Shown here: piece by piece, positions 11,401 through 28,133 of the stretch | Numbering within the stretch: the first letter of the stretch is position 1 | Layout of the letters: the number at the start of each line of letters is the position of its first letter | Virus record (IMG/VR): IMGVR_UViG_3300029791_000002 | Coordinates: 1-64,000 of that record | DNA: 64,000 nt | DNA from: a virus | Strand: one strand, 5' to 3' | Notes under the pieces: model-generated | Databases searched by the model: none | Told to the model about the DNA's origin: nothing | Seen by the model: the letters and a program-made list of their open reading frames with translations, nothing else | Translations under genes and position numbers: made by a program

Positions 11401-14400
11401 TTCGGAACTGGAATTTAGCGAAAGTTATGCCACAAGAATGGAATCCATATACAAAAAGGCTGAAGAAGAATTAGGGCATCCGGTTTCTCAAACAACCAAA
11501 GAATACCTTAATGCTCTATCCAGGCAAAAACGGATATTGAGGCAGCCTTTTATTGATAGCGGTGGTAATTTTGATGAGGTTGCCTATTTTAAAAGCAGCA
11601 ATTACGAAGAAGAAGGACTGCTTCGTAAACAACGTAAGGAAGCAGCTTCAGAATACATATATGTAGGAACCAGGAGAGTGGAAAAAACCGGCGACCAACT
11701 TAAGATGGCTAAAGAAATACAAGCTATAAATGAAGTTTGGAGAAAGGAATCAAATAATGTTACCAATGCCGTATCAGAATCGTTTTTGCAAAAATTAAGA
11801 ACGATTCAGAGCGAGTCGGGAGGAGAAGCTGCGCTGAAGACACTTATGTTGGGAGGTCACCTGTCGTTCAATGATCGGTTTTGGAATGAAGTAGAATCGG
11901 AACAGTCGGCGCGTACCGAATCAAATAACAAGGCTTCGTATCTTAAAATGGCGCATGATATCATTAGTTCTACGACAAGTGATAGAGATGCGACTGACGT
12001 GGATTCGATTGTGAAAGATATAGAAAAAAATAAGGCCATTATCAAGGAAATAATCGGAAACAACCGAGATGTGGCTGATATCGGAGAAATTAACGAAGCG
12101 ACATTTACCTCATCTGAAAGAGATGCTTTTAGGGCCGCATCTGAAGCTATTGAAGCTGATTACGCTATCTTAATAGATTATGCTAAGATGGTGGGTCTTG
12201 AAGATATTGATAAGTACCTTACTAAAAGCAGTAAGGCCGAAAACGAAGTAAATCAGTCTTATTTAAATGCTCTTGCTGACTCCAAGGAAGTGGAATGGAA
12301 GTTCGTACAACGTCATACTACGGCGAAGAAAGCAAAAAGGATTCAGGCTTTAAGGGATAAGCTGTTTAAGGCTGCTGATAACCGATATCTGTTTACCGTA
12401 TCTGAAACCAACTACCTGTCAGAAAAGCTTGGTATAAGCAAAGAATTAGACGGTAGAGATTTCAGGAATGCTGTTAATGCTAAGATGGCCAGCTTGTTTT
12501 TAAATAATACAAGAGAAGAGGGCATAGAAGAGACCAATGCTATTGTTAATGAATTTGCCAGGAGCCAGGTCTTTTCGTACTATAAACGCATGGCGCCTAC
12601 CGGATATGCGGCCATGATCGACAAAATAGGTCGAGGTGAGATAGATGTGGCGCAGATGGTTAAGGACGTACAAAACGGTACATCCACCCAAGATTATGGC
12701 ATGGACATATCGTACCTGTCTTTCGATCCTGCAAGGGCATGGGTGGCTGAATCTGAAGCCGAAAATAGCGGCCGTAATCCTGATTATGTAAAAGATCATG
12801 GGTATGGTCATCGAATGCCTAAGAAAAGCCTGTATCGTGATGAATCGTATTTCAATGACTTTGGTATCAAGTATGATGCTGACGGTAATGAAGTTGCTAC
12901 TAAAAACGTAGAGCAGTGGAATATGATTCAAAAACTCAAGGAAATAAAAAGACAATCGCTTGATCTATACAAAGAGCAGAGTCCTAATCTGTATGCTATT
13001 CCACAGATATCAAAACAAGACATAGAACGTGTAGAAGGATTGGGTATTAACTTCAAAAATACGGTTCGTAATTTTGTATCAGATCTGTGCCTGGACAGAG
13101 TAGACGATTCTCTATATGGTAAGACCAGGCAAGGGGAAGTATATGATCCGGAAGACAGACTTAGGTCTATACCTAAATACTACATATATGAGTTGGAGAA
13201 CCAAGATGATGTATCTCACGATTTTGGCTACTCTTATTCGATGCTTATGATGCAGTCATCGTTATATAACGAAAAGCAGAAGTCTATAGAGCTTGCCCAA
13301 GGACTGGAGCAGATGTTACTGAATAAACAATTTGAAGGCGGTAAGAAGGCTGAAGCAACCCAAGCATATCAGATGTTCAGGGACTTCTTCAACGATCATT
13401 ATTATGGCATTAGGATGAACACCAAAAAACTTACGGTGAACATCGGAGGATATACGGTAGACCTTACAAGAATTATGATGGCTGTTGAAAGATTTATGTC
13501 GGTTATGAACCTGGCACTGTCTCCGTTTGTGGCAGCTACCGGCGCCCTGACAGGTCATATCAACCTCATCATGGAATCTGCCGTAGGACAGTATATAAGC
13601 AAAGACTCCCTTAAATACGCATCGGCTGAGTTTTCACGTCTTGCGCCATCTTGTATAGCAGAAACCGGAGACATAGATAGGAAAAGCAAATTATATGTCA
13701 TAGGTGAGAGAATGGGGATATTCAATATCCGAAATCGTATGTATGGTGCCGGATACAATAGAGCGGCCAGGACCTTAATGCGTTCGCCTATGTATGCTTT
13801 TATGGAAATCCTGAACTACCCTCTTGATCCGCAGGTTATGATTGCTACTATGGACAATGTTCGTTATTACAAAGGCCGGTTCTACACGTTCCAAGATTTC
13901 AAGATGGAAAAAGAACGCAATAAAGAACAGAGTACCATAAAAAGAGAATGGAACGCATTAAAAGATCGTACTTTATGGAGTATGGTAGACGTCGTGGATG
14001 GGAAGGTGGTTGTAAAGCCAGGATCGGGTGTTACTGTTGAGGAAGTAGAAACCCAGATGGCTATAACCAGAAATCAAGTTCGTAGCTTGTCGCAGATATG
14101 CAACGGATCTTTGAATGAAGAAAACCGAACTGCCGCATCGCGCAACTGGATAGCCAGGTTCATGACCGCCCACCGAGGATGGTTGGTGCTGTCGGCTCAA
14201 CGTCTGTGGAAAAGACGTGGCTTCAATTTCCAGACAATGCAAGAAGAGGAAGGGTTGTCAATTACGTTAAAGAATATGATAGCCAAAACATTTAGCCTGG
14301 CTTCCGAGTCTGGTATGAAAAACATCATAGATGCCTGGAATGAAAATAAAGACAATATGAATGAGGTAGAAAAAACCAATCTCAAACGTCTCAGTGTCTA

Positions 14401-23225: not shown

Positions 23226-24245
23226 TCATCGTTTTATCTTTTTAGACGGATCCCAATCCGAAGAGAAAGGGCATTCGTTTTTGTTATGTAATCCAAAGTC
23301 ACAATAATAACACAGTGCTGACGGGCAGGGCAGCTTGTTTTGCGGAACAGGCTGGCTTAGGGTGGCGCGCCGCTTGCTATACCTGGCTCCTTCTGCCCCC
23401 TGGATGTACGCTTGAAATGTTTTTACACTATTATCTTCAAAATCATACATTTTGGATAAAGTGTCATTTAGCATTTCTATAGATTTTGTTTTACGTTCCT
23501 CATCAACTTTAACCTTTTGGTATTGTCTGGTCCTGGTAAAGAAATAGATGTTCATATCTGGCAGAACTCCACCATATTTTCTATAGATGTAAAACGAATA
23601 TATAGGATGCTGTAAATTCGTTTCCAACTTCTTAGAATCAAAAACCTTATTACCTGATTTCCAATCTATGACATAATGGTGAACTACGTTCTTGCTCTTT
23701 ATAGCCAGATGAAGGTCTACCGATCCTACTATGTACACATGAGTATGAACGTCACCATTTATATCAACAGGCTTAGGAAGACGGTACGGCAGCACAAAAT
23801 CTTCTTCGACTCCAACTATAGCGCCGTGTCTGATAAGTTTCTCACAGGGATTAAGATCACTATCAGCTATCATAAACCTATTCCCGTCTTTTTTAAACAG
23901 ATCCACAATCCAAGCAAGAAGCTCCCCAGATTGTTTCATGGCTATCATCATATTTTCCGGTGATAGCCAAGGTATGTCTTCTTGGTAAGCATAGTAACTT
24001 ATTGCTTCTCCAAGGTCTTTACCAGAAGGCTGTCTTCCGTTCTTAAAGAAGTATTCCAGTGTCTTATGGATAACCGTACCATAAGACGTAGCTTCTTGTT
24101 TTTCCGTAGACCTTTTGCCCTCTACGTAAGTCTTATACCATTTCATTGGACAGGCAAGAAACGTATCTATCTGGGAATAAGATATGGCAAGACGTTTCAC
24201 ACCATTAAACTCCTTATATAGCAAATGCGTTTCTGGGACCATCAT
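23226..24245 (-). CDS. Cas4/RecB-like PD-(D/E)XK nuclease with 4-Cys cluster
   Basis: GSVDL (motif II), IDWKSG (D-x-K), QHPIYSFY (QxxxY); N-terminal Cys plus C-terminal CPSALCYYCDFGLHNKNEC, as in Cas4/AddB Fe-S nucleases. Confidence 0.7.
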   Translation of the reverse strand: MMVPETHLLYKEFNGVKRLAISYSQIDTFLACPMKWYKTYVEGKRSTEKQEATSYGTVIHKTLEYFFKNGRQPSGKDLGEAISYYAYQEDIPWLSPENMMIAMKQSGELLAWIVDLFKKDGNRFMIADSDLNPCEKLIRHGAIVGVEEDFVLPYRLPKPVDINGDVHTHVYIVGSVDLHLAIKSKNVVHHYVIDWKSGNKVFDSKKLETNLQHPIYSFYIYRKYGGVLPDMNIYFFTRTRQYQKVKVDEERKTKSIEMLNDTLSKMYDFEDNSVKTFQAYIQGAEGARYSKRRATLSQPVPQNKLPCPSALCYYCDFGLHNKNECPFSSDWDPSKKIKR

Positions 24246-24601
24246 AAGCTATCGTCTTTAAATCCTTCCGGGTAATATACGACATACTTTTTACCGTCTT
24301 CTGGTGTCATAGCAAACTGCATGTAGTTATTACGATTACGATGCTTGCCATCTAATCCTCGCTTCCAATACAGAATCCCGTCTATATCCACATAAGACCG
24401 TCCGCGTTCGGCTCTAACTACGTCCGTGTGTAGCAGATACCCGTCGGAAGACACAATCCATACTTTATCCCCTTTGTTTAAATAAGATATTCTTTTTCTT
24501 ACAACAACCTTTTTCTTATTATCCAATACAAATTCCTCATCAGTCATACTCTTCATCCTCCTCTTCTTCTGTTTCAAAATCAATTCCATAACACTGATCA
24601 T
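24242..24601 (-). CDS. hypothetical protein (119 aa)
   Basis: ORF. Confidence 0.5.
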   Translation of the reverse strand: MISVMELILKQKKRRMKSMTDEEFVLDNKKKVVVRKRISYLNKGDKVWIVSSDGYLLHTDVVRAERGRSYVDIDGILYWKRGLDGKHRNRNNYMQFAMTPEDGKKYVVYYPEGFKDDSL

Positions 24602-24764
24602 AATGCTTGGTCAGTTCTTCTGGTTCTAAATCTTGTCCAAAATCCATGTTAAAAATATCGTAATTAGTAAAGCACTTAAAAGCACTATCCCAGCCGGCAG
24701 GAAATCTATGAATGCTGCTTTTATTTCTTCAATTAGGCCCAAGTGTAACCTTGGGCCATTGTAT

Positions 24765-26465
24765 TTATTTTTTGTCATCTCCCTTTAACTTCTTTAAAGT
24801 ATCTGCAATCGGAAGCTGATCAATGACTCCCAATGCCGGAGCGACGGTCTTGACAACATTGTTAAGGAAATTACCGGTACTGTTCTGACCGCCGTCAAAT
24901 ACCGTGATATTTCCGAGGTTAATGTGCTCAAATGCCTTAACCTGTTCTCCGGCAATTTCTTTCCACTGATTAACCATCTTGTACTGGATGGCGATCTGAG
25001 GATTGGATTCTGCTGCTTCCACCATAGCCTTAAATCCGTCGGCTTCTGCCATCAACGATTTTTTCTTACCTTCGGCTTCTGCCTCCAGCTTCATCTGAAT
25101 AGCTTTTGCCTCCGCCTCAGCTTTTGCCAAATGTGCTGCTGCCTCTGCCTCAGCCCGGCGTTTGATCTTCTCTGCCTCAGCATCAGCTTGTAATATAGCC
25201 TCTTCCTTCTGGGTTTCAGCCGGCACAATCTTTTCAGCCTTAAGCGCAGCCTGAACTTTCTTAGCCTTAGCTTCTTCCACTTCTTTGTCGGCAAGCTCTT
25301 TTGCTGTTTTTACAGCCGCTTCCGATTTAACTTTTTCTTCTCCGGCCTTCTTCTCTGATTGAGCTTTGATGATCTGTAGTTCTGATACTGACACAGCAAC
25401 CTCCTTCTGGGCATTGTTGTATCCTATAGACGCATTTTTCTCAGCCTCAGCCTTCTTAATCTGAGCTTCAGAGTCTTGTATTGCTATAGCTGCTTCCTTG
25501 TCAGCTTCAGCCTTATTCTTTCCGACTTCTTCCATCCTTTCAGCCTCGGCTTTATTTACTTCAAGTTCTGCCTTAGATCTTACAATCGCCGATTCCTTGT
25601 CGGTTAAAGTTTTTGCGATAACCGCAGCCCTGTCTCTATCTGCTTGAGCTACGCCGATCTGTTTTTCTTTATCGGTTAAAGCCAAGGCTATTTCTTTTTC
25701 TTTCTTCGTTTCAGCTACTATCGTTTCCTTTTCTTTTTCAGTACAAGCAATTTGAATCTCTTGCTCTTTTTTGGTATTAGCCACAGCCGTTTCTTTCTCC
25801 TTCTGCTGTACAGCAATCTTAATAGCACCCAGCTTCTCCTGTTCTTCGATATTAGCCTGTGCCTCGTTCAGAGCCCTACTTTCAGCCTCCTTACCAAGGT
25901 TCATAATATAACCAGCTTCGTCTCTGATGTCACTGATGTTGATGTTCAGGAGGTAAAGACCTAACTTGTTAAGCTCGTTGTCAATGTTCTTTCTTGCCTT
26001 ATCCAAAAACTCATCCCTGTCAGAATTAAGTTTTTCGATTGTCATTTCAGCAATAATCAAACGCATCTGACCGTAAACAATGTCCGTAATAAGATTTTCA
26101 GTAGATTCGGTATCCATCTCCAAAAGTCTTTCTGCCGCATTTTGCATGATTTCGGGATTTGTACTGATAGCTACTGTAATGGTCGTAGGTACATCTACTC
26201 TAATATTCTGAGATGATAAAGCACCGGTAAGCTTGCAATCTATTTGCATAGGCTCCATTGACAAAACATCATAGCTTTGAATAATAGGCAAGACAAATGC
26301 CGCTCCACCATGATATAATTTCGCCGATTTCTTTTCCCCACCTGTCTTACCATAAACGACCAAGACCTGATTAGGCTTACATCTACGATACCTTGATAAG
26401 ACTCCGATGATTGTCAAAATAATCACTACAGCTAAGATAGCTGACACGTACATGATTGTTGTCAT
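24765..26465 (-). CDS. flotillin-like SPFH/Band-7 membrane protein
   Basis: N-terminal TM helix, SPFH core (VLVVYGKTGG...HGGAAFVLPIIQSYDVLSMEPMQIDCKL) and a long KEKE/EA-rich repeat coiled coil (KEKETAVANTKKEQEI x several). Confidence 0.85.
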   Translation of the reverse strand: MTTIMYVSAILAVVIILTIIGVLSRYRRCKPNQVLVVYGKTGGEKKSAKLYHGGAAFVLPIIQSYDVLSMEPMQIDCKLTGALSSQNIRVDVPTTITVAISTNPEIMQNAAERLLEMDTESTENLITDIVYGQMRLIIAEMTIEKLNSDRDEFLDKARKNIDNELNKLGLYLLNINISDIRDEAGYIMNLGKEAESRALNEAQANIEEQEKLGAIKIAVQQKEKETAVANTKKEQEIQIACTEKEKETIVAETKKEKEIALALTDKEKQIGVAQADRDRAAVIAKTLTDKESAIVRSKAELEVNKAEAERMEEVGKNKAEADKEAAIAIQDSEAQIKKAEAEKNASIGYNNAQKEVAVSVSELQIIKAQSEKKAGEEKVKSEAAVKTAKELADKEVEEAKAKKVQAALKAEKIVPAETQKEEAILQADAEAEKIKRRAEAEAAAHLAKAEAEAKAIQMKLEAEAEGKKKSLMAEADGFKAMVEAAESNPQIAIQYKMVNQWKEIAGEQVKAFEHINLGNITVFDGGQNSTGNFLNNVVKTVAPALGVIDQLPIADTLKKLKGDDKK

Positions 26466-26496
26466 AACTTTTAAAATTTAATTGTTGATAAAAAAA

Positions 26497-26991
26497 TTAG
26501 ATACCTAATTCTCCTTCTTCATATTTTATATTCACCTTGTCACCGTTTTTGTAGGTTTTTCCAGACAAGCATCTTACTCTCATTTGCTCCTGTCTTCCAT
26601 TTTTTGAAATATTTACCATATAATGATTCTTCCCTGATCTAAACACTATCTCCACTTCTCTTCCATTTAAATCTTCCGGACATTCGTATACCATTTCTTG
26701 CTTTAACTTAAGAAGTAACTTATATACGTAAAACAAAACGATAAAGAAAAACGACCCTATCACAACCCCTACTAAATGGGAACCCGAAAAGTAGGTAGTC
26801 CAGCTATATCCAAGAATAAAATGTGTTATGCCCTTGAATGATATGATATCCGACAAAGACATGCTTAAATCAGAAGCACTGTCAATGTCAATATCCGTAT
26901 CCAGATCAGATCCTAATATCGACAACAAAAACTGTATAACAAAAGCAAATGACGCTATTAAAGCCATGCATAAAATTATGTCACTTCCCAT
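26497..26991 (-). CDS. NfeD-like membrane protein (partner of SPFH proteins)
   Basis: Two N-terminal TM segments plus C-terminal beta-rich domain (EVEIVFRSGKNHYMVNI...GDKVNIKYEEGELGI) typical of NfeD OB-fold; directly upstream of the flotillin gene. Confidence 0.65.
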   Translation of the reverse strand: MGSDIILCMALIASFAFVIQFLLSILGSDLDTDIDIDSASDLSMSLSDIISFKGITHFILGYSWTTYFSGSHLVGVVIGSFFFIVLFYVYKLLLKLKQEMVYECPEDLNGREVEIVFRSGKNHYMVNISKNGRQEQMRVRCLSGKTYKNGDKVNIKYEEGELGI

Positions 26992-27232
26992 ACCCTTCTG
27001 TTATTATTTTGTAAACAAGATCAGTCATATCTTTGATGGTCTCCATATCATAATCAATAATAACAATATTGAATTTTTGTTCCACCATCACTTCCAGTTC
27101 AATTTGATCAACAGAATCTAATCCAAGTTCTTTAAACGTCACATCTTCTTCATGAATTATATCTATTTCCGAATTAAGAAACTGAGTAATAATTATATCC
27201 TCTATTATCTTTCTGATTCTTACTTTTTCCAT
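26981..27232 (-). CDS. acyl carrier protein-like (83 aa)
   Basis: Carrier-protein signature ELGLDSVDQIELEVMVEQKFNI (cf. ACP LGADSLDTVELVMALEEEF), with Ser in the phosphopantetheine position; four-helix size. Confidence 0.65.
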   Translation of the reverse strand: MEKVRIRKIIEDIIITQFLNSEIDIIHEEDVTFKELGLDSVDQIELEVMVEQKFNIVIIDYDMETIKDMTDLVYKIITEGYGK

Positions 27233-27933
27233 TGCTTTCTAATTTTGTTAAATAAATACGTTTTTATGTTTTTCAATCGCTCTTTGTCTGTTTCAGAACT
27301 TCCGGTAAACAAATAATCCGGATTGCCTTTAGCCGGAGGCGTAGGCAATTTAGATACGGCAAACAACCAATCCATTTCCTTATTCTTCTTAGACTCCAAA
27401 TAAGGCTCGGTAGCGATCTTAAATTTTTCAGCTATTAAGTCAAAGAGCTTTGAATTTTTAAGGTTCATATGAACTGAAAAAGTCTGAGAAGGCGGTTTCC
27501 ATATGAAGTTACATAAGCTCATTGTATAATCTCCTGACTCTGCTATATAAGATTCCGTTACCTGAAGTATGACCTCTTTCTTGAATGAGGTGTTACCCAT
27601 AAACCAACACAATCTGGATTCTGCTTCTTTTCTGCTGACACCTATGTCTTTTGAATATGATTCGTACATTCCTATCATAATCTTCAACGTTTCCAGAACC
27701 TCGTCTGTCATTTCCGGTGTCTCTATATAATTCACAAAAGACGTTCCCTTGTTGGTCAATCTCATCACGCCTGATTTTAATTTCTCAACCAGGCCAAGCT
27801 CTATATACCTCCCAGCATCTTCTTCCGGCATGGCTTCGATCATAACCGAATCCTTCTGTCTTATGGCAAGAAGATTGGCAAGATCATTAGGAGTCATGTC
27901 TGATGCTGCAAGTTGTCTGAAATTGATGTACAT
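27220..27933 (-). CDS. hypothetical protein (237 aa)
   Basis: ORF overlapping the ACP start, same operon. Confidence 0.55.
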   Translation of the reverse strand: MYINFRQLAASDMTPNDLANLLAIRQKDSVMIEAMPEEDAGRYIELGLVEKLKSGVMRLTNKGTSFVNYIETPEMTDEVLETLKIMIGMYESYSKDIGVSRKEAESRLCWFMGNTSFKKEVILQVTESYIAESGDYTMSLCNFIWKPPSQTFSVHMNLKNSKLFDLIAEKFKIATEPYLESKKNKEMDWLFAVSKLPTPPAKGNPDYLFTGSSETDKERLKNIKTYLFNKIRKQWKK

Positions 27934-27935
27934 TC

Positions 27936-28133
27936 TTAATCAGCTTTAATAAAAATAACATTCTTGTTATCTTGTCTATCAACATGTCCACATGGACCAA
28001 TAATTATGTCTGTACATGAACAAGAATCGTAATCTTCGAATATACATCCATCGCATGTATCACCTTCCACACATTTTAATCTTACAAGTCCGGCAGTAAA
28101 TACTTCTCCTACTTTAAATTCCTTCTTTTCCAT
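27936..28133 (-). CDS. small Cys-rich protein (65 aa)
   Basis: CVEGDTCDGC...CSCTDIIIGPCGH. Confidence 0.4.
   Translation of the reverse strand: MEKKEFKVGEVFTAGLVRLKCVEGDTCDGCIFEDYDSCSCTDIIIGPCGHVDRQDNKNVIFIKAD

Follow-up and report, generated by a model that had tools for sequence, protein, structure and literature searches.

The genes for an acyl carrier protein (ACP), an NfeD-like protein and a flotillin that lie together in a 64,000-nucleotide stretch of virus DNA (positions 1 to 64,000 of the IMG/VR record IMGVR_UViG_3300029791_000002, hereafter the window) belong to two evolutionary units that adjoin each other in a variable cargo slot within the replication block, namely a p237-ACP pair and an NfeD-flotillin-p50 cassette. 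The ACP is linked to p237, the neighbouring 237-residue protein, and is not part of the flotillin machine. The NfeD-flotillin pair is evidently, judging from sequence comparisons, a host-derived SPFH2-NfeD2 operon captured from a Bacteroidales host such as Bacteroides, Parabacteroides, Phocaeicola or Prevotella. This cassette is strongly constrained yet dispensable, since about a quarter of the near-identical genomes have deleted flotillin together with p50, the 50-residue product encoded after it.

The analysed block is the minus-strand interval 24626-27933, which holds five tightly packed open reading frames (ORFs). A first-pass annotation had called the ACP, NfeD and flotillin genes and regarded them as one module carried by a phage. 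The three gene calls and their family assignments were upheld by the ORFs, by profile matches and by evidence from structure, architecture and gene position. The genes are indeed phage-borne. The block is 97.7% identical to GenBank OR575929 ('phage csAssE-Sib'), a 151-kb human-gut phage annotated with crAss-phage vocabulary, in which the corresponding genes are labelled 'flotillin family protein', 'transmembrane protein' and 'acyl carrier protein'. The three genes described in the first-pass annotation are all present, but p237, which lies inside its interval, was left undescribed and p50 falls just outside. The phage is an abundant, approximately 151-kb crAss-like human-gut phage; its flotillin occurs in over 160 IMG/VR contigs, and the principal cluster of flotillins comprises 2,433 sequences.

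Two evolutionary units in one cargo slot

The view of the NfeD-SPFH pair as a conserved bacterial operon, taken in the first-pass annotation, agrees with what we found in Bacteroidales. A one-genome-per-species scan yielded 80 loci from Bacteroides, Parabacteroides, Phocaeicola, Prevotella and related genera, whose chromosomal flotillins are 62-67% identical to the phage flotillin. In 79 of these loci an NfeD-like gene, 30-41% identical to the phage one, lies directly upstream of flotillin, and the sole exception has just 50 nt of upstream sequence. Likewise, two metagenomic contigs with housekeeping neighbours carry a 165-residue homologue directly upstream of flotillin, and no ACP. An ACP profile search detected no ACP within 4 kb of any of 82 bacterial NfeD-flotillin loci.

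In global alignments, the phage proteins are 67-70% (flotillin) and 34-44% (NfeD) identical to their bacterial counterparts, as compared with 71-93% and 41-81%, respectively, between bacterial genera. From this proportional divergence of the two proteins we propose that the operon was captured whole, in agreement with the published evidence for co-evolution and joint transfer of SPFH2-NfeD2 pairs (Hinderhofer et al. 2009, PMC2636767). The phage pair resembles the Bacteroidales operon (as in Bacteroides xylanisolvens XB1A, NC_021017, our locus L118, and Phocaeicola vulgatus, L148) in its genes, their order and spacing, and the length and domain layout of flotillin. It differs from it in standing among replication genes, in being followed by a small membrane-protein ORF, in its polymorphic presence and in its distance from each bacterial copy, which is about that between the most divergent bacterial genera. 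Compared with the SPFH2-NfeD2 operons yuaF-floT (yuaG) of B. subtilis and yqiJ-yqiK of E. coli (PMC2636767), the phage NfeD is marginally similar to YuaF and there is no yuaI-like gene.

In a sister clade of phages (contigs L171 and L174-L177), the p237-ACP pair is present whereas NfeD and flotillin are absent, the order of the genes being DnaB, p199, p121, p236, ACP-like, Dcm-type methylase, p119 homologue, two radical-SAM (S-adenosylmethionine) proteins and PD-(D/E)XK exonuclease. The carrier serine is replaced by aspartate (GFDDLD) in all five sister-clade ACP-like proteins, though these contigs have diverged considerably from one another; hence this protein cannot be a usual acyl carrier, and it may be an ACP mimic. 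In two further clades (L172 and L173), neither ACP nor flotillin follows p237, other genes being found in the slot. It is because the contents between p237 and the exonuclease differ from clade to clade that we regard this place as a variable cargo slot, in which the NfeD-flotillin-p50 cassette is specific to one lineage, including an 82%-identical clade.

The variation among near-identical genomes of the same lineage separates the units further. The pooled ratio of non-synonymous to synonymous polymorphism (pN/pS), calculated against 80 near-identical contigs, is 0.04 for flotillin (at a pS of 0.17), 0.058 for NfeD and 0.057 for p237, as compared with 0.38 for ACP and 0.35 for p50; in addition, approximately 10% of the ACP alleles are truncated or frameshifted. 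Presence and absence were scored on 74 near-identical contigs with both flanks, which were drawn through p237 so that the sample is blind to flotillin. Flotillin is full-length in 53 of them, absent from 17 and reduced to remnants of 26-233 residues in four, while p50 is missing from all 17 flotillin-less genomes. The 21 genomes without intact flotillin all keep the 83-residue ACP ORF, and 20 keep the NfeD ORF, with an NfeD pN/pS of 0.08-0.12 where flotillin is wholly absent. Between NfeD and p119, the deleted genomes have gaps of several distinct lengths and junctions; at the commonest junction, the final 22 nt of p50 remain and there is a short T/A-rich microhomology. These distinct junctions and the retained end of p50 point to repeated deletions, not to ancestral absence. 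Internal deletions have also generated NfeD-flotillin fusion proteins, seen in independent assemblies.

These data bear directly on the model of the first-pass annotation, in which ACP, NfeD and flotillin form one module whose ACP brings acyl groups or lipids as cargo to a membrane microdomain built by the phage. It is true that the three genes follow one another directly on the same strand, with overlaps between stop and start codons, that their order is conserved in the 82%-identical clade and in a coiled-coil-deletion variant, and that the GLDS motif with its serine is kept in 83 of 84 genomes of the clade to which the window belongs. However, gene overlap is the norm across the whole gene block, and neither a phosphopantetheinyl transferase nor any acyl-handling enzyme is annotated in the 151-kb relative, as judged from all but about 7 kb of its genome. 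The bacterial pairs have no ACP nearby, the sister phages have ACP and p237 without flotillin and with the serine replaced, all flotillin-defective genomes keep the ACP ORF, and this ORF is both more weakly constrained than its neighbours and more often disrupted. The claimed coupling of the flotillin pair to a carrier protein is thus contradicted on each of these counts, and the model appears to us very improbable. Furthermore, the triad does not extend beyond one phage lineage, and two other phage flotillins, described below, have no ACP.

Other observations concern the contents of the slot and its surroundings. The Dcm-type methylase and the two radical-SAM proteins of the sister clade (L171, 5929-8946, and the equivalents in L176 and L177) fill the slot where the window has NfeD and flotillin. 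In a subset of the near-identical genomes, an insertion of approximately 370 nt, absent from the window (site at about 24601-24626), lies between p50 and p119 and contains a HEARO RNA (Rfam RF02033, an IscB-type omega RNA; contig L021, 7877-8121, plus strand; 95.2 bits versus a gathering score of 83). This insertion has no IscB ORF beside it, occurs in genomes with and without flotillin and may be an isolated remnant of an IS200/IS605-type element; the annotation of the relative places TnpB genes in other parts of its genome. Further downstream in the 82%-identical clade, one genome has a NAMPT/NAPRTase-type gene and the other a TnpB gene (OrfB_IS605) in the same place (L086, 12880-13707, and L085, 13180-13707).

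The proteins of the block

The phage flotillin matched the Pfam families Band_7 (PF01145; residues 30-211, 7.9e-26, 91.6 bits versus a cut-off of 23.6) and Flot (PF15975; residues 450-559, 2.1e-9, 38 bits versus 27), both above the gathering score, and the solved structures of human flotillin-2 and flotillin-1 matched it at 9e-22 and 5e-18, respectively. Inspection of the sequence by eye revealed an N-terminal hydrophobic anchor at residues 4-24 (IMYVSAILAVVIILTIIGVLS) and, between the SPFH and Flot domains, a Glu/Ala/Lys-rich stretch at about residues 215-450, so that a coiled coil precedes the Flot domain. The 'long KEKE repeat coiled coil' of the first-pass annotation is therefore a coiled-coil region, but a degenerate one in which no tandem repeat was found at the DNA level; the bacterial homologues, at 524-612 residues, are of similar length, so that the long coiled coil did not arise in the phage. 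The SPFH and C-terminal domains are the best conserved with respect to bacterial flotillins. With 140 bits against NCBIfam NF058507, the equivalog model of B. subtilis FloT, as compared with a cut-off of 700, the phage protein is a flotillin but not a FloT orthologue. The length of flotillin varies among near-identical genomes, 566 residues being the commonest, with in-frame variants of 404-489 residues and a few longer ones (overall range 404-577), and a cluster of 425-residue variants comprises 348 sequences.

The NfeD name could not be verified by profile on the 164-residue protein itself, which matched no family of Pfam, NCBIfam or PHROG (PF01957 gave nothing at E<=1), and structure was needed instead. 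An exhaustive profile search defined its family as 423 clusters of 160-180-residue proteins. PF01957 was matched by three of 72 family members (best 6e-5), and the 72-sequence family profile gave a marginal match to YuaF (E 0.4) in a sequence search of the PDB, in which a shallow five-sequence profile found nothing. The AlphaFold2 model (pLDDT, the predicted local distance difference test, of 74) has three hydrophobic helices at the N-terminus, an acidic DxDxD loop that is disordered, and a soluble C-terminal beta domain resembling an OB (oligonucleotide/oligosaccharide-binding) fold. This corresponds to the architecture described for NfeD homologues such as YuaF and YqiJ, in which three hydrophobic stretches are followed by an all-beta domain (PMC2636767), and it amends the first-pass description of an NfeD-like 'two-TM/OB-fold protein': the NfeD-like character and the OB-like domain stand, and the hydrophobic helices are three, not two. 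In addition, a viral relative 35% identical to the phage protein carries an NfeD-like name in BFVD. Because scores nearly as high are reached by generic OB folds (ribosomal protein S17, for example), the assignment rests on fold, membrane architecture and gene position taken together. The D-x-D-x-D loop, which joins the first membrane helix to the second (residues 29-41), has low confidence in the model and is near-invariant at D31 and D33 throughout the family, bacterial members included; it may be a cation-binding or interaction site.

The 83-residue protein was described in the first-pass annotation as ACP-like with an LGLDS signature, and the profiles agree with this description. It scored 27.0 bits against PF00550 (PP-binding; cut-off 20.8) and matched PHROG 5934, 'acyl carrier protein', at 1.7e-8. 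The family profile matched 128 solved ACPs over nearly the full length (best 9e-17), Ser39 of ELGLDSVDQ being aligned with their DSL serine, and from this alignment the four-helix bundle of ACPs is predicted. Similarly to the ACPs of type II fatty acid synthesis (AcpP, mitochondrial ACP) and to the phage ACPs of PHROG 5934, it combines a full-length profile match with a DSL-type serine and an acidic helix II. It differs from them in falling below the AcpP cut-off (28.5 bits versus 70.45 for TIGR00517), which means that it is not an AcpP equivalog, in being a lone carrier without annotated partner enzymes and in having aspartate for serine in the sister clade. Phosphopantetheinylation of the phage ACP would presumably need the host AcpS. 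Phage ACPs themselves are known, and no characterised role for them was found in the literature. In one near-identical genome (L013, 5234-5482), ACP codon 43, which is CAA or CGA in the others, is an in-frame TGA, i.e., a pseudogene allele or a sequencing error.

According to its predicted structure, p237 consists of an N-terminal MarR-like domain, with a winged helix-turn-helix, and a C-terminal helical domain. Its family reaches down to 36% identity in other phages of approximately 150 kb. The Sfp-like size of p237, its place before ACP and an 'SRKEA' string had made it a candidate phosphopantetheinyl transferase, which we rejected in view of its all-helical winged-helix fold and of the lack of any match to the ACPS profile. 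As for p50, a 52-residue counterpart of the same architecture occurs in the 82%-identical clade and its coding status is likely, not certain, given the weak constraint reported above.

Possible roles of the cassette

Knowledge of bacterial flotillins and of their NfeD partners is still limited. We regard it as probable that the NfeD-flotillin-p50 cassette is a host-derived, conditionally useful membrane scaffold carried in the variable cargo slot, its role in infection being what we infer. The phage flotillin would insert into the inner membrane via its N-terminal hydrophobic segment and oligomerise through its coiled coil and Flot domain to form an SPFH-type dome or cage, with the NfeD-like protein as its membrane partner. 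Such an assembly could supplement or re-tune the host flotillin microdomains, thereby keeping membrane proteins stable and the membrane intact up to lysis in an infected cell that is under stress and drained of energy. This last step is proposed by analogy with FloA-NfeD of S. aureus, the same kind of pair although FloA is a different flotillin subtype, which stabilises unfolded membrane proteins without ATP and is required under stress (PMC11222466). The cassette would then operate as a conditional fitness factor, like an auxiliary host-maintenance gene.

Several observations weigh against this proposal. No close donor was found in the sample, all bacterial flotillins being about equally distant, so that the capture is either old or from an unsampled lineage. 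The G+C content does not mark the cassette as foreign (0.426 for flotillin, 0.381 for the window and 0.423 for the neighbouring helicase), the Bacteroidales host is presumed from gene similarity alone, and the pattern of presence and absence comes from metagenome assemblies, not from reads. Lastly, NfeD stays intact and constrained in genomes lacking the phage flotillin. This retention is the observation that a self-contained phage pair explains least well; an NfeD acting with the host flotillin, or independently, would explain it at least equally well.

That the cassette is a neutral passenger, i.e., recently acquired host DNA on its way to loss, is extremely improbable. The whole or partial loss of flotillin from about 28% of the sampled genomes and the unstable length of its coiled coil agree with this idea, but the coiled-coil deletions stay in frame, the low flotillin pN/pS at the pS observed indicates long-standing purifying selection within the phage, and the cassette is old, being common to clades that differ by 18% in flotillin and by 37% in NfeD. 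Strong constraint combined with polymorphic presence and several independent deletions is typical of conditionally useful conflict genes, and the phage flotillin and NfeD might alter the membrane so as to keep out superinfecting phages or to weaken abortive-infection effectors that act on the membrane. The location of the slot in the replication block, away from the structural genes, and the DNA methylase and radical-SAM genes that it holds in sister phages are in line with such a function. Nevertheless, the PADLOC defence models matched none of six block proteins, the literature search returned no earlier case of an SPFH protein that serves in phage exclusion or in counter-defence, and the phage protein is a little-changed copy of a host housekeeping gene; we hold a conflict function to be unlikely.

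It is unlikely, to a slightly greater degree, that the phage proteins interfere with the host scaffold, the phage flotillin co-assembling with the host one or the phage NfeD binding to it, so as to redirect or poison the microdomains, for instance by releasing or sequestering their clients. Mixed oligomers are plausible given the high identity of the two flotillins and the conservation of their SPFH and C-terminal domains, and the intact, constrained NfeD of nearly all flotillin-defective genomes points to an NfeD function independent of the phage flotillin. Against this stand the absence of any obvious domain loss that would turn the phage flotillin into a poison subunit and the purifying selection over its full length, which fits an ordinary functional flotillin. 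A related and decidedly doubtful possibility is that the phage NfeD docks on the host flotillin cage, and the phage flotillin co-assembles with that of the host, to make a platform serving the phage, for instance as an anchor for replication or assembly, or as a means of disarming suicide defences that act at the membrane. On the same reading, p237 and the ACP-like protein, which lacks the serine in sister phages, might be a separate pair of regulator and ACP mimic, comparable to FabT with acyl-ACP.

The first-pass annotation considered a phage-borne pair coupled to a carrier protein unusual. This is correct only in part. Flotillin matches occur in just 11 of 50,697 GenBank phage records, mostly in small unannotated fragments. 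Flotillin and ACP were already annotated in OR575929, SPFH-domain proteins constitute PHROG 200, and two other phage flotillins can be compared. Vibrio phage KIT04 (LC487410) has an annotated flotillin preceded by an 82-residue two-helix protein, which lacks a beta domain, unlike the NfeD-like protein studied here, and the unverified 121-kb gut scaffold MT835492 encodes a Band_7+Flot protein without NfeD. As in the csAssE-Sib-like phage, these Band_7 flotillin-like genes stand among the non-structural genes of a large lytic phage; they are only 26-29% identical to its flotillin and hence independent acquisitions, and neither is accompanied by an ACP. A tblastn search of the 50,697 GenBank phages with ACP, NfeD and p237 found csAssE-Sib only, plus one unannotated fragment for NfeD. 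In the literature, we found one paper noting an SPFH-type lipoprotein in another phage, with no known role given, but no study of this phage and none that connects flotillin with crAss-like phages. Our additions to what was known are as follows: the product labelled 'transmembrane protein' is probably homologous to NfeD, it entered the phage with flotillin as one operon, the ACP has no relation to this pair, and the presence of the cassette varies between genomes.

These findings correct the attractive but unsupported idea of a carrier protein feeding lipid cargo to a phage-built raft, and they leave the serine-less ACP-like protein of the sister phages as a separate question. Natural variants with and without flotillin circulate in human guts, which amounts to a natural experiment on a host flotillin operon under strong selection. 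By comparing them, one could learn under which conditions a membrane scaffold benefits a phage infecting Bacteroidales, and whether the host flotillin is a target of NfeD.

Gene layout and neighbouring features

The genes of the block and the other features discussed are listed in the table. Consecutive genes overlap by 13 nt (p237 and ACP), 11 nt (ACP and NfeD) and 14 nt (flotillin and p50), and NfeD is separated from flotillin by a gap of 31 nt.

Table 1. Features of the window and sister-clade ACP-like genes (contig handles are given before the positions that do not refer to the window).
Feature	Position	Strand	Description
p237	27220-27933	-	237 aa; predicted MarR-like winged-helix and C-terminal helical domains; backbone gene of the replication block, overlaps the ACP start
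ACP-family protein	26981-27232	-	83 aa; ELGLDSVDQ; Ser39 in the GLDS motif
Short NfeD-like (YuaF/NfeD2-type) protein	26497-26991	-	164 aa; three N-terminal membrane helices, acidic DxDxD loop, C-terminal OB-like beta domain
Flotillin (SPFH2/FloT-YqiK type)	24765-26465	-	566 aa; N-terminal anchor, SPFH domain, coiled coil, C-terminal Flot domain
p50	24626-24778	-	50 aa; C-terminal membrane helix; start overlaps the flotillin stop; likely coding
Hairpin	24736-24757		G+C-rich, 8 bp; begins 8 nt 3' of the flotillin stop codon, within the p50 ORF
p119	24242-24601	-	Conserved backbone gene, downstream bound of the cargo slot; homologues in the sister clade (98-100 aa) and in flotillin-less genomes
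PD-(D/E)XK exonuclease	23226-24245	-	Backbone gene downstream of the slot; annotated as exodeoxyribonuclease in OR575929; PF12705 in relatives
Sister-clade ACP-like gene	L171 5675-5938
Sister-clade ACP-like gene	L174 4563-4826
Sister-clade ACP-like gene	L175 5175-5444
Sister-clade ACP-like gene	L176 5175-5438
Sister-clade ACP-like gene	L177 5175-5444

The hairpin behind flotillin may be a putative terminator or RNA-stability element, hairpins being found also 3' of bacterial flotillin genes. An Rfam search of the window block gave no match, and a scan for sigma-70 promoters, a consensus that is not meaningful for a Bacteroidales phage, stayed near the shuffle expectation.

Near position 14000 of the window, both the GC skew (positive before, negative after) and the coding strand flip, and this switch coincides with the boundary between the plus-strand structural genes and the minus-strand replication genes of the annotated relative. 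Finally, a Cys-rich 65-residue ORF, p65 (27936-28133, minus strand), exists in two classes of alleles, with identities of about 95% and about 64%, and has, at 0.66, the highest pN/pS of the block.

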